A stretch of 64,000 bases of DNA from Candidatus Aenigmatarchaeota archaeon (GCA_026397315.1 JAPLVC010000007.1:1-64000); one strand, 5' to 3'; shown: positions 43,234 through 48,941, counted from the stretch's first letter. The notes: generated from the sequence alone by a model not told the origin. Numbers and translations are program-made.

Positions 43234-43509
43234 ATGAACACATCATTGGAAATCGTGGTCGTGGCAATCATCCTTCTGGTCGTGGCGCTGGTTCTTCTGA
43301 CGATATTCGGAACTGGCATGACACCATTCGGTGCTTTCACAAGCAACAAAAATGTATGCATACAACAATACGACTCTTCGTGCAAAGCTACTGGTAATGA
43401 TCCTGTGGATTGGGGAGTCGCTAAATACAAGGACTCTAAAGGGGTTTTGCAAGCGTGCTCGACTCTTGCCAAGTGTTCATGCATCAATAACGTCGCCTCG
43501 TGCACCTAA
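43234..43509 (+). CDS. pilin-like protein
   Basis: 'MNTSLEIVVVAIILLVVALVLL' plus Cys-rich head. Confidence 0.75.
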   Translation: MNTSLEIVVVAIILLVVALVLLTIFGTGMTPFGAFTSNKNVCIQQYDSSCKATGNDPVDWGVAKYKDSKGVLQACSTLAKCSCINNVASCT

Positions 43510-43559
43510 ACTTCAAACTCCTTTCTTTTATTTATACCAATTTATTACAAGTATTACTT

Positions 43560-43991
43560 ATGAGAATGGCCCTTGAGATTGTGGTCGTGACTATCATACT
43601 TCTTGTCGTGGCGATTGTGGTACTCATGTTTTTCGCCAACGGCATGCGTGCCGGCGTCGACATGACGGACGCGAGGAACCAGTGCATTACCATGGCCTCG
43701 GCCTCGTGCAAGTCGCTGAAGGTCTTGCCTCCGACATGGTTTGTGCCGACGGTCACCGTTGAAGGGAAGACCGCACCGGAAAGCTGCGACGATATAACAG
43801 AGGGAGCCTACAAAGATTGCAGTAAATTTGGCGTGACCGGAGGCGGCGCGACGACAGGCGGAACGACGACGATAACCACGAACACACAGTGCACGACAGC
43901 ATTATACACTTGCGAGGCCTCGTGCACTGCACCCAAGACGCAAAAAGGGACATGCGATGCCGACCCCGCCAAGAAAGCGTGCTGCGGCTGA
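43560..43991 (+). CDS. pilin-like protein (paralog of 43234)
   Basis: 'MRMALEIVVVTIILLVVAIVVL', C...C...C..W pattern, Thr-rich linker, Cys-rich tail. Confidence 0.75.
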   Translation: MRMALEIVVVTIILLVVAIVVLMFFANGMRAGVDMTDARNQCITMASASCKSLKVLPPTWFVPTVTVEGKTAPESCDDITEGAYKDCSKFGVTGGGATTGGTTTITTNTQCTTALYTCEASCTAPKTQKGTCDADPAKKACCG

Positions 43992-44006
43992 TAGCGGGAA
44001 TGTGAG

Positions 44007-44126
44007 ATGATGCAAATGATGAAAGGGCAAAGTGATATCGTGGCCTCAGGCCTGCCCATATTCGCGATGGTCGTGCTGATAGTCCTTATCATACTGGTGG
44101 CCGTGAGGATTTTCGGCGGCGGATGA
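44007..44126 (+). CDS. 39-aa micro-pilin (not in ORF track)
   Basis: MMQMMKG|QSDIVASGLPIFAMVVLIVLIILVAVRIFGGG. Confidence 0.65.
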   Translation: MMQMMKGQSDIVASGLPIFAMVVLIVLIILVAVRIFGGG

Positions 44127-45977: not shown

Positions 45978-45980
45978 AAT

Positions 45981-46763
45981 ATGCTTAAAAAAATGAAAGG
46001 CGGCATAAGTGAATCGCCATGGACAATCTGGGCAGTCATAATATTCGCGGCCGTCATCGTCGCTGGTTCATTTTTCCTCAATTCGTATTATATCGATTAC
46101 GCGGCATTTCTGAAAACTCCGCCGGAAAGGCTCAAAGCGCTTGAAGCAACCAACGCCGTGCGCGGGTGCCTGCTTAACGGGAAGCCTTACGTGACGAAGG
46201 ACTTTCTCGACGAGAACAGCGGCGAGGACATAGACGACCTGTGCGGCTTCGAGGACCCGGGTACAGAAGCCGACGTCCTTGACACGCAAACCGGCCAGAA
46301 GTGGGGTCTGAGCTCGAGTCTGAGCAAAGCGGACCACTCGGTCTGGATTCCGATTGCTTACACAGGTTTTCAGGAAATAACCGATGTCAATTACGCTTTA
46401 AGCGGAGAATATGTCATACATGCGAAGTGGCTAGGCGTCGGGGTGCTTAACATAAAAGCCAACGACGTCATTTTGGAATTATATCCTTCGGCGCTTTACC
46501 CGGGCGGATCAAGCAAGCTTGAAAGCGTCACCTCTTCCAAAGTCAGGGAATGGATAGAAAAGCTGGTTGATGCTGACAACCCCGAAGGCACGCAGAAGGC
46601 GGACCTGACAGGCATGAACATAATGGCGATAATCCCGTCAGAATACAGTCTCAAAGAATGCAGTTCGGTTGGCGACCTGCTTTCCCACGAGGCCTGCGTG
46701 AAAATGTTTACGGGGGTAAAAGAAATTCATTTAGGGAGACTGAACGTCGATGTTACGCTCTAA
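45981..46763 (+). CDS. pilin-like protein
   Basis: 'KKMKG|GISESPWTIWAVIIFAAVIV'. Confidence 0.65.
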   Translation: MLKKMKGGISESPWTIWAVIIFAAVIVAGSFFLNSYYIDYAAFLKTPPERLKALEATNAVRGCLLNGKPYVTKDFLDENSGEDIDDLCGFEDPGTEADVLDTQTGQKWGLSSSLSKADHSVWIPIAYTGFQEITDVNYALSGEYVIHAKWLGVGVLNIKANDVILELYPSALYPGGSSKLESVTSSKVREWIEKLVDADNPEGTQKADLTGMNIMAIIPSEYSLKECSSVGDLLSHEACVKMFTGVKEIHLGRLNVDVTL

Positions 46764-47781
46764 AAATAAAAAGGGGATAGCGGACTTTGCGTTGTTCGTC
46801 GTGATAGCGATAGCGGTCGTATCGCTCATACTCGTTGCCAGCTGGCTGGGAAAGGTGCTTGGCCAGGGTAGGCAGCTAGTCAAAGTCAAGGGAGTGGTGG
46901 ACGTTTACGTCAACCTTGACGACAAAGGCAGCGAGTTCAGCTTTCTGGAAGCCAAAAATGGCGATTATGATTTCATGGAAATTCTCGGCGTCGTGGGATC
47001 CGGAGCCAAGATAGGAGGCGACCTTAAAGCCCAGATGGAAAATGTGGAAAAAAGCATCGAAAGGATAAAGAATTCCGACAAGAAAAATTTCTACATATCC
47101 GTCATAAGCCCGGAGGGTAAAGTGGTGTATGAGAAGAAAAGCGGCAATCCGCCGCTCGTCGTGGGAACGGGCGGAGAGGACATACTGCTAAAATGGCCGC
47201 TGGACGCCAGCAACTATGAGATAATATCGGGTTTCGGGTGGAGAAAAGACCCATTCTCAGGCAAGGACTCGTTCCACGGCGGTATAGACATACCGGGAAA
47301 TCTGGGAGACCCCGTTTACAGCGCAACGGACGGAACCGTATACAGGACGGTAAACAATGATGCGGATTTGGGCAATTTTGTCGTTATAAAATACACATCA
47401 CAAAGGACGAACACGCCGTATTACGTTTATTACGGACACATGCAGGGCTTTTCCGTAAGAACTGGTGACAGTGTGAAGATCGGAGAGGAGATAGGGAAAG
47501 TTGGCTCCACCGGCAAATCACAGGGCCCGCACCTGCATTTCGAGATAAGAAAAGACAAAAACGGCGACGGCAATTTAGCGCCAGACGCAGAGTCGGTAAA
47601 CCTCTGCCCGTATCTCACAGGCGCGTCAGGCGGCATTGTCGACTCAAAAACTTGCATGAAAAAATGCCCGGTATACGAGAATCCGGACTCATGCGATTCT
47701 GATATGACGGTCGTCACGAACAGGTTTGACATACCTGTTCCGGGCGGAAAGAAAGGCTACGTGGAGCTGATGCTATGGTAA
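46750..47781 (+). CDS. pilin-like protein containing an M23 metallopeptidase domain
   Basis: 'KNKKG|IADFALFVVIAIAVV'; 'SGFGWR.DP', HGGID (HxxxD), 'YYGHM', 'GSTGKSQGPHLHFEIR' (HxH). Confidence 0.9.
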   Translation: MLRSKNKKGIADFALFVVIAIAVVSLILVASWLGKVLGQGRQLVKVKGVVDVYVNLDDKGSEFSFLEAKNGDYDFMEILGVVGSGAKIGGDLKAQMENVEKSIERIKNSDKKNFYISVISPEGKVVYEKKSGNPPLVVGTGGEDILLKWPLDASNYEIISGFGWRKDPFSGKDSFHGGIDIPGNLGDPVYSATDGTVYRTVNNDADLGNFVVIKYTSQRTNTPYYVYYGHMQGFSVRTGDSVKIGEEIGKVGSTGKSQGPHLHFEIRKDKNGDGNLAPDAESVNLCPYLTGASGGIVDSKTCMKKCPVYENPDSCDSDMTVVTNRFDIPVPGGKKGYVELMLW

Positions 47782-48941
47782 AATTCAAGGGCATGACGAT
47801 AAACATCCTCAGCGTAGGCCTGATAATACTCGTTTCCGTGATTCTTTATGCGTTCCTCAACCCGCTATCGCAGCCGCATTCGTCTGAATACGCGAAAACG
47901 GATATCTATGTCATGAAAAACGCCCTAGATTCGTCCAAAGTCTATTTGAGGGCGTCTTTCGATTATGCTGTTTACCAGGCGCTTTACGACGTTTCGAGAA
48001 AGGGAGGGTTTAGCGACGCCCAAAGCCAGTCCGCATACGCTAACGCTCTGGCGCCTGTCATATCATGCCAGAAAACCGACAAAAGAATCGGTGAGCCGGA
48101 AAAGATAATCGGCTGCGTTCCCGGCGAATACGGATGCCCAGACAGCGACGGCAAAGATGCTTACATAAACGAAGGTTACCAGGTAGGCCTCTTGCAATTC
48201 CTGCTAAAAGACCTTAAATACGAACTTACCGTTGACTGCAAGTTTGGCAAGGGCAGCCTGGAAAAACTCAAGGAATTCCAGAAAGACAAAGGCCTTACTG
48301 AAAGCGGTTTCCTTGACGACGCCACGACGGAGAAGCTGAAAGAATCCTTTGCTTACGATAACTGCGGGGATTATTTTTACGGATGCACGAACAGTTTTTC
48401 TGCCGTATGGAGCACGGAACTCGCAGAAGACCAGTTCAAAAGTAACATCAAGAATGAGATCGTAAAAAACATGAACTCATACACGTCAAAAGGATACGTC
48501 TTCCTCGACCTTCCAATAACAGGTCTTCCGCAATACAAAACCGACAAGATTACGATTTCCGAATCCGGGACTGGATTGAAAGTCTCGCTCAGCGGGGATA
48601 ACATAAAAATATCAAAGAAAGATGAATATGAAGTCATTGACATAGCGTCATCGTCCGACATGGAAAAAATATACGATATAGATGCCTTCGGCATTTACAG
48701 GAAAGCAAAAAGCGTATACAACGACATTAAAAGCAAAGGATGCGATGCCGCAAAAGACGAAACGAAAACTGAAGGCGGATTTAAAACTGAAGTGAAGATC
48801 GTGAGCAAGACGACGAACCCTGAATGCTCCGCTAAAGTCAGGGTCTCGGTGGTGGAAGAAAATCCTAAAAAAGTTCCTGTCTTCAACGGACGTTCCGTAT
48901 CTTTCGAGCCGGTTAACATGATTTTAATGTTGAATTTGTAA
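47775..48941 (+). CDS. pilin-like protein containing a peptidoglycan-binding (PG_binding_1-like) domain
   Basis: 'KFKG|MTINILSVGLIILV'; 'VGLLQFLLKDLKY...VDCKFGKGSLEKLKEFQKDKGLTESGFLDDATTEKL'. Confidence 0.78.
   Translation: MVKFKGMTINILSVGLIILVSVILYAFLNPLSQPHSSEYAKTDIYVMKNALDSSKVYLRASFDYAVYQALYDVSRKGGFSDAQSQSAYANALAPVISCQKTDKRIGEPEKIIGCVPGEYGCPDSDGKDAYINEGYQVGLLQFLLKDLKYELTVDCKFGKGSLEKLKEFQKDKGLTESGFLDDATTEKLKESFAYDNCGDYFYGCTNSFSAVWSTELAEDQFKSNIKNEIVKNMNSYTSKGYVFLDLPITGLPQYKTDKITISESGTGLKVSLSGDNIKISKKDEYEVIDIASSSDMEKIYDIDAFGIYRKAKSVYNDIKSKGCDAAKDETKTEGGFKTEVKIVSKTTNPECSAKVRVSVVEENPKKVPVFNGRSVSFEPVNMILMLNL

Follow-up and report, generated by a model that had tools for sequence, protein, structure and literature searches.

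Here, we describe a gene cluster in a Candidatus Aenigmatarchaeota archaeon that brings together pilin-like proteins and enzymes directed at bacterial cell walls. The window analyzed is the whole 64,000-nucleotide stretch GCA_026397315.1 JAPLVC010000007.1:1-64000 (64 kb), and the cluster comprises nine open reading frames (ORFs) at positions 43234-48941 (Table 1). We find that its five larger genes (scaffold genes 1 to 5) belong to a set conserved across the order, and that the peptidoglycan-directed domains they carry are swapped between relatives. The best reading of the locus is a filament tip complex that has repeatedly been armed against bacterial walls. On balance, we lean towards a complex of minor pilins that binds and opens the bacterial wall, allowing the archaeon to attach and feed.

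Three of the scaffold proteins carry peptidoglycan domains. This had been claimed in a first-pass annotation made from the sequence alone, and Pfam profiles place all three domains over their cut-offs. Gene 2 contains an SLT domain (PF01464, GH23; residues 173-256, E = 1.3e-15, 57.4 bits against a cut-off of 21.3), gene 4 a Peptidase_M23 domain (PF01551; residues 175-270, E = 5.5e-27, 94.2 against 28.7 bits), and gene 5 a PG_binding_1 domain (PF01471; residues 134-188, E = 7.9e-8, 32.8 against 23 bits). NCBIfam is concordant for the domains, with scores under its full-protein cut-offs. The catalytic and wall-binding domains of this operon are thus found on separate polypeptides. Searches for homologues identified no bacterial donor of the SLT or M23 domain.

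The catalytic residues of both enzymes are intact. The SLT motifs are complete (E185-S, G200-F-M-Q, and Y252-N253), as are the zinc motifs of M23 (H176-x-x-x-D180, H230, and H261-x-H263). In alignments of 24 orthologues, SLT residues E185, G200, Y252, and N253 are invariant, and M23 residues H176, D180, H230, and H261 are invariant or nearly so. The modelled M23 domain matches the LytM domain of DipM (Z = 19.7, root mean square deviation (rmsd) 3.6, 146 residues aligned). In the gene 5 model, the PG_binding_1 domain is predicted to form helices at residues 134-148, 160-171, and 182-194, with a low to moderate predicted local distance difference test score (pLDDT).

The three functions had initially been taken as a kit that forms a unit. 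Comparison with relatives does not bear this out. The five scaffold genes are bare in many relatives; those of genome G024, for example, encode proteins of 215, 138, 124, 147, and 345 amino acids (aa). Thus, judged from gene content, the conserved unit is an order-wide five-gene scaffold of minor-pilin-like proteins, with the enzymes as grafted cargo. About 55 loci fetched from relatives are arranged alike: a ~950-aa protein comes first, followed by small Cys-rich pilin-like genes, at least one helix-only gene, the five scaffold genes, and usually alba. A profile of the gene 5 scaffold is present in 55 of the 59 genomes of the order, with weaker matches in other families of the class. The carrier of M23 is matched in 41 of 61 relatives, and a Pfam M23 domain occurs in 35/59 genomes of the order. 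PG_binding_1 is found at gene 5, as an insert of ~125 residues, in this genome and five relatives (6/61 genomes). The third of our locus sets was picked for absence of M23, and frequencies are therefore taken from genome tallies only.

In other genomes, the occupants of the scaffold slots differ. Gene 4 may carry a GH73 glucosaminidase (G001 and G012), an M15_4 peptidase (G030, G033, and G039), or GDSL together with M23 (G213), and gene 5 may carry SLT (G046, G059, G206, and G243), GDSL and Amidase_3 (G002), or PKD, YkuD, and Amidase_3 (G036). The recognized enzyme cargoes thus comprise six peptidoglycan families (SLT, M23, GH73, Amidase_3, YkuD, and M15_4) and one exception, an SGNH/GDSL esterase, which we presume might strip O-acetyl groups off the wall. 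Between them, the swapped cargoes attack bonds of several kinds, all present together in bacterial peptidoglycan: the amide between N-acetylmuramic acid (MurNAc) and L-Ala, the peptide cross-links, and the beta-1,4 glycan. In our view, the presence of six peptidoglycan-directed families in the same slots is the strongest evidence that the bacterial wall is the probable substrate. In locus L037 (G044), a separate prepilin-like SLT protein of 191 aa is encoded at 3255-3830, upstream of the large gene, and the gene 2 slot is bare.

The position of M23 relative to the scaffold also varies. In this genome, the domain is inserted ahead of the conserved C-terminal I-P-x-P-G-G hairpin of gene 4. It precedes the hairpin in families f1 and f5 and follows it in family f6, a difference suggestive of independent grafting or of rearrangement. 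The change could have run from a bare ancestor with gains or from an armed ancestor with losses.

An alternative is that the grafted domains are binding modules (adhesins), or that their substrate is a different polymer, for example pseudomurein or an N-acetylglucosamine glycan of a host. Non-catalytic M23 proteins exist, and two of them, EnvC and SpoIIQ, are among the fold matches of gene 4. The canonical HxxxD and HxH motifs are found in 27 of the 32 orthologous M23 domains with readable motifs. Five orthologues (L039, L040, L129, L131, and L033) have altered zinc ligands: H-L-D replaces H-x-H in f6, and H-G-G-V-S and H-L-Y are found in L033. Such copies are possibly inactive or binding-only. 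SLT motifs are likewise degenerate in some family members. The locus described here retains every catalytic residue, however, and the bonds attacked by the swapped cargoes are found together in bacterial peptidoglycan. We therefore regard this alternative as improbable. A search for pseudomurein-binding repeats had no match in any control genome and is hence uninformative.

Action on the archaeon's own wall was also considered, and was rejected. We found no transglycosylase or transpeptidase of the penicillin-binding protein (PBP) type in this genome (1.05 Mb, 91% complete, 0.4% contamination), and its sole Mur-ligase match is a FolC-like ORF. There is therefore no evident self substrate.

The first-pass annotation proposed that these proteins are minor or tip pilins, and this proposal is supported in part. 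Every one of the nine ORFs has an N-terminal hydrophobic helix, as had been noted. A basic class III-like cleavage site had been attributed to most of them, and six of the nine do have a K-G/A site before the helix. Among orthologues, a K/R-G/A site combined with a single helix is found in 36/36 (gene 5), 32/34 (gene 4), 22/28 (gene 3), and 19/24 (gene 2). The same combination is found in 56 of 159 N-terminally anchored ORFs of this genome, a background set that contains other prepilins too. A separate prepilin-like gene lies at 17917-18447 on the minus strand of the window; its N-terminus, KAQ/S-A-M-E, is of the Q-x-x-x-E type.

Structure models were made for genes 4 and 5, and that of gene 5 suggests a pilin-like fold. 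The gene 5 model (pLDDT 76) has helices at residues 8-32 and 36-75. Its top three matches among 48,161 chains are GspI (Z = 8.5, rmsd 3.5, 75 residues aligned), EpsI (8.4, 3.6, 75), and XcpV (7.5, 3.3, 76), middling Z-scores in a range that can reflect a common arrangement. Eight further pilins, including PilE, PilX, PilV, and PilA4/5, are in the top 50, and the Atlas listing for gene 5 includes PilV and T2SSI clusters. The enrichment of pilins among these matches is nevertheless specific. The alignment profile of gene 5 had no match among PDB sequences. The gene 4 model (pLDDT 86) consists of a 37-residue N-terminal helix (9-45) and the LytM domain. Its fold search was filled with M23 domains and listed no pilin, and the scaffold portion reached only Z of about 6, to S3/Cache folds.

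The proteins of genes 4 and 5 are also predicted to form a complex. The score was 0.61, against 0.00 for the best of three controls, and may owe something to a likeness with solved pseudopilin complexes; of 80 solved complexes, 58 score at or above the mark, as do 2 of 110 mismatched pairs. Contact agreement between runs was at least 49%, with a partner pLDDT of at least 70. The modelled interface lies between the soluble scaffolds, where the hairpin of gene 4 (residues 324-335) faces gene 5 residues 49-68, Y236, and P368-V369. Interface residues are among the most conserved columns (0.57 versus 0.37 for gene 5), in a test that used the same alignments as the complex model. The modelling thus supports the prediction that the two proteins bind each other.

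No assembly ATPase, platform protein, or prepilin peptidase is encoded within the window, in agreement with the first-pass annotation. Candidates are located elsewhere in the genome, which has four secretion ATPases, five platform-domain matches, and one A24 prepilin peptidase. Orthologues of the ATPase and platform genes on contig C3 lie directly upstream of the cluster, and in the same orientation, in seven f6 genomes and two f13 genomes. On C3 itself (G000), a secreted Cys-rich protein of 1950 aa is encoded at 30438-36290, between the ATPase and platform genes, which are adjacent to each other in f6 relatives.

From these parts we infer the following mechanism. In an archaeal type IV filament, the five larger genes would form the minor-pilin complex, at the tip or priming the assembly, with short pilins supplied by the small genes. 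The prepilin peptidase encoded on contig C7 would trim the leaders, and the ATPase and platform protein from C3 would assemble the filament. At the tip, PG_binding_1 would hold the bacterial wall, while SLT severs its glycan strands and M23 its peptide cross-links. The wall would be opened locally, and a living bacterium would then be accessible to the archaeon for attachment and feeding. Cells that lack an outer membrane would presumably make the simplest targets.

Several findings weigh against this reading, including the middling Z-scores, the absence of pilins from the gene 4 matches, and the limits on the complex prediction given above. No basic leader is present in the first two small ORFs (91 and 143 aa; M-x-x-S/A-L-E-I-V-V) or in the SLT protein (M-G-E-T-E-E-D), and this part of the first-pass claim about cleavage sites did not hold; the N-termini of four close SLT homologues are acidic and leaderless as well. 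Only about half of the orthologues match a strict FlaFind-like pattern, and PF04021, the Pfam model for class III signals, had no match anywhere in the genome. The ATPase and platform genes sit on another contig, and the genome has three further secretion ATPases. Six relatives (G024, G029, G038, G048, G050, and G058) possess the scaffold and have no SLT, M23, or PG_binding_1 domain in whole-genome searches. With at least six such relatives, wall attack is therefore not the core job of the filament. Finally, the literature searched names no bacterial host for this lineage. The hosts identified for cultured DPANN archaea are, to our knowledge, other archaea.

The leaderless proteins and the unlinked assembly genes would fit a membrane-anchored surface complex, or a short pseudopilus, anchored through its N-terminal helices, with no display on an extended filament. 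Such a complex would still cut the wall of a touching bacterium, and the best fold matches of gene 5 are indeed pseudopilins of type II secretion systems (T2SSs). Against this stand the near-universal cleavage sites among orthologues of genes 5 and 4, the contiguity of ATPase, platform, and cluster in f6 and f13, and the short helix-only genes of headless-pilin type within the cluster. We consider this explanation rather unlikely.

A second possibility shares the pilus-tip apparatus with our preferred reading and differs in its target. The complex might act on dead bacterial wall, in necromass or biofilm matrix, where it would anchor the cell and free amino sugars and peptides; the host, if there is one, would still be an archaeon. 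It is established that enzymes of this kind cannot distinguish live from dead wall. The DNA probably comes from a freshwater-sediment metagenome; runs with a small share (X2-X4) were left out of this habitat assignment. Relatives manage without the enzymes. Scavenging, however, requires neither a retractable tip nor such rapid swapping of cargo. The exchange of six catalytic families at fixed slots fits adaptation to different targets, a pattern that has been read as conflict (PMC12352652). Scavenging is the strongest of the alternatives, if still an unlikely one, and we continue to favor a tip complex used on living bacteria.

The three domains are of bacterial type, which could suggest that the assembly is chimeric or that bacterial DNA was inserted here recently. 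This is almost certainly not the case, and the first-pass annotation was right to doubt it. One 21.8-kb contig of a freshwater-sediment run, the probable source of this DNA, spans positions 38000-49688 with zero mismatches and even depth. Synteny with scpB, alba, and trpS is maintained across dozens of genomes; this survey refutes a recent insertion. The GC content of the cluster is near that of the flanking genes, and GC content at third codon positions (GC3) is 0.55-0.69 in cluster genes and 0.65-0.77 in adjacent housekeeping genes; the gene of the 943-aa protein upstream is AT-richer (0.35). Full-length homologues with taxon names are from Aenigmarchaeota, and the best match of the neighboring alba is to CAVSBQ010000002.1, a Ca. 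Aenigmarchaeota metagenome-assembled genome.

The proposed arrangement resembles several known systems. In the modular type IV pilins PilB and PilC of S. sanguinis, a functional module is likewise borne on a pilin scaffold, presumably at the filament tip; the modules highlighted there are vWA, lectin or carbohydrate-binding, and one peptidase family (PMC8179133). Unlike those pilins, the proteins described here are archaeal, carry peptidoglycan enzymes, in some cases inside the scaffold, and are spread over several genes of one operon. The Kil (Tad) pilus of Myxococcus xanthus has minor-pilin tips (KilLMN) with variable domains, and short Flp-like pilins, as does our locus. It has been shown experimentally to be used on contact against bacteria, and needs a needleless type III secretion system; peptidoglycan is unmentioned (PMC12075869). 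The Kil tip complexes are the closest functional model, a likeness by description. The complex would work like modular pilins and Kil tips, and we claim membership in neither group.

There are also similarities to the minor pseudopilins GspI, GspJ, and GspK of T2SSs and to the minor pilins of type IVa pili, namely the modelled gene 5 fold and a string of putatively co-transcribed minor pilins with a predicted heteromer. Unlike these systems, the cluster has no N-methylation motif, no conserved E5, and no sequence match to solved structures. Unlike in T2SSs, no secretin is expected, and the ATPase is of the archaeal FlaI/TadA type. Archaeal type IV filament system 1, the Epd pilus of Methanococcus maripaludis, is similar in its many pilins, its short headless pilins (candidates in our cluster), its occurrence in Nanobdellati, and the location of the ATPase beside a platform gene with pilins scattered (PMC13705601). 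System 1 has two platform genes, whereas the platform protein linked to our cluster is encoded by one ORF (~650-725 aa). The survey, from 2026, includes Nanobdellati in its account of archaeal type IV filaments and leaves peptidoglycan and Aenigmarchaeota unmentioned (PMC13705601).

Peptidoglycan enzymes have already been published for DPANN archaea, as has the idea of a bacterial host or prey. Bacterial hosts were proposed from scattered genes for murein-like lytic transglycosylases (fam00969), SLT/GH23 enzymes like that of gene 2 with a proposed action on bacterial walls or hosts (PMC8204110, PMC9723730). The fam00969-type proteins are large extracellular proteins of Woesearchaeota and Pacearchaeota, and pili, an operon, or a scaffold are not described for them (PMC8204110, PMC9723730). 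Bacteria-killing peptidoglycan hydrolases of archaea (Woldo and others) share with our locus the combination of M23 with PG_binding_1, domain shuffling, and a patchy distribution (PMC12352652). They are single modular proteins with Sec or Tat signals, are often encoded on plasmids, and are reported with no mention of pili. In our locus, by contrast, the operon is chromosomal and pilin-like, and the catalytic domains are borne by other chains than the wall-binding domain. The screen in that study sought both domains in one polypeptide, and would therefore not count them (PMC12352652). The first-pass annotation did not recognize the pilin-fused arrangement as a described system, and we too found no description of a pilin-mounted peptidoglycan system in DPANN in the literature searched, which left most subscription papers outside its scope.

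The locus gives the guess of a bacterial host the form of a defined machine: its parts can be named, its catalytic residues and a predicted interface are specified, and armed lineages can be compared with bare ones within one order. Whether DPANN archaea have bacterial hosts thus becomes directly testable. The soluble domains, moreover, are small, and no culture of the organism is needed to assay them. More broadly, many Aenigmatarchaeota could be contact predators or episymbionts of bacteria, equipped with a dedicated cross-domain machine for breaching walls, in which a conserved filament tip is re-armed repeatedly and armed and bare lineages mark bacterial and archaeal hosts, respectively. 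We offer this wider proposal tentatively, as conceivable but somewhat short of probable. If it is true, the frequency of M23 in the order would make archaeal parasitism or predation on bacteria common in sediments, and the cargo repertoire would predict the wall types targeted by each lineage.

Table 1. Features of the pilin-like cluster, its neighbors, and candidate assembly genes. Positions refer to the window unless a contig (C3 or C7) is given.
Feature	Coordinates	Strand	Remarks
Large protein, 943 aa	40279-43110	-	KRKG/D class III-like site; one N-terminal helix; no Pfam domain
Small Cys-rich pilin-like protein, 91 aa	43234-43509	+	No basic leader (M-N-T-S-L-E)
Paralogue of the 91-aa protein, 143 aa	43560-43991	+	Leaderless too; E = 1e-10 between the pair
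Helix-only peptide, 39 aa	44007-44126	+	KG/QS site
Helix-only protein, 61 aa	44128-44313	+	KKKG/FI site
Scaffold gene 1, 193 aa	44361-44942	+	KA/SS site; no Pfam domain
Scaffold gene 2 with SLT lytic transglycosylase domain, 335 aa	44970-45977	+	SLT at 45486-45737; E185
Scaffold gene 3, 260 aa	45981-46763	+	KG/GI site
Scaffold gene 4 with M23 Zn-endopeptidase domain, 343 aa	46750-47781	+	KKG/IA site; M23 at 47272-47559
Scaffold gene 5 with PG_binding_1 insert, 388 aa	47775-48941	+	KG/MT site; insert at 48174-48338; modelled GspI-like pseudopilin fold
alba	49105-49431	+	Usual downstream neighbor across the order; context, outside the apparatus
Intron-containing tRNA gene	49502-49690	-	Context
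Secretion ATPase	C3:28114-30369		Orthologue linked to the cluster in relatives
Platform protein	C3:36346-38460		Orthologue linked to the cluster in relatives
Prepilin peptidase (A24)	C7:110622-111464		

The nine ORFs are all co-oriented and tightly packed, as originally described, with coordinates confirmed and successive intergenic gaps of 50, 15, 1, 47, 27, 3, -14, and -7 nucleotides (nt). The 91-aa protein has orthologues in f6 that carry MKG/LS at the leader. The 39-aa peptide is a candidate headless pilin of Flp/Epd-like type, and the 61-aa protein is a second candidate. Scaffold gene 2 lacks a basic leader in this clade, and relatives have bare versions of ~130-170 aa. Scaffold gene 3 is longer than its ~140-aa orthologues and contains an additional unannotated region.

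The gene for the 943-aa protein is inverted relative to the cluster here and has the same orientation as the cluster in many relatives. Judged by synteny, this protein is part of the locus, which is thus larger than first drawn. It had no Pfam or NCBIfam match and no usable Atlas match, and is a candidate large tip adhesin. Two tandem paralogues occur in G038 (L143, 6430-12616) and G041 (L154, 9796-16525), which suggests a variable adhesin repertoire. In L036 (G004), three genes are fragmented at 5300-9200, namely the 943-aa orthologue, the SLT gene, and scaffold gene 1, through either misassembly or genuine decay. A 217-aa ORF with a central hydrophobic segment (39622-40275), located between the 943-aa gene and scpB in the window, has no homologue in the fetched loci.

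Downstream, both neighbors named in the first-pass annotation are present. The alba gene was confirmed. The tRNA gene and its intron find support in contigs from other organisms, which align on both flanks and omit ~111-121 nt, though the gene is called by neither default ARAGORN nor Rfam. Relaxed ARAGORN assigns it to Ala, a call we do not trust, and it appears Leu-like by eye.

Elsewhere in the window, a tRNA at 6262-6417 (Rfam) is followed by a 374-aa ORF (6472-7596) that is tyrosine integrase-like by eye, and GC content is ~30% at 10-16 kb. The region 6262-16000 is probably an integrated island. A further low-GC cluster at 20346-23833 comprises four or five genes, several of which encode N-terminal hydrophobic segments.

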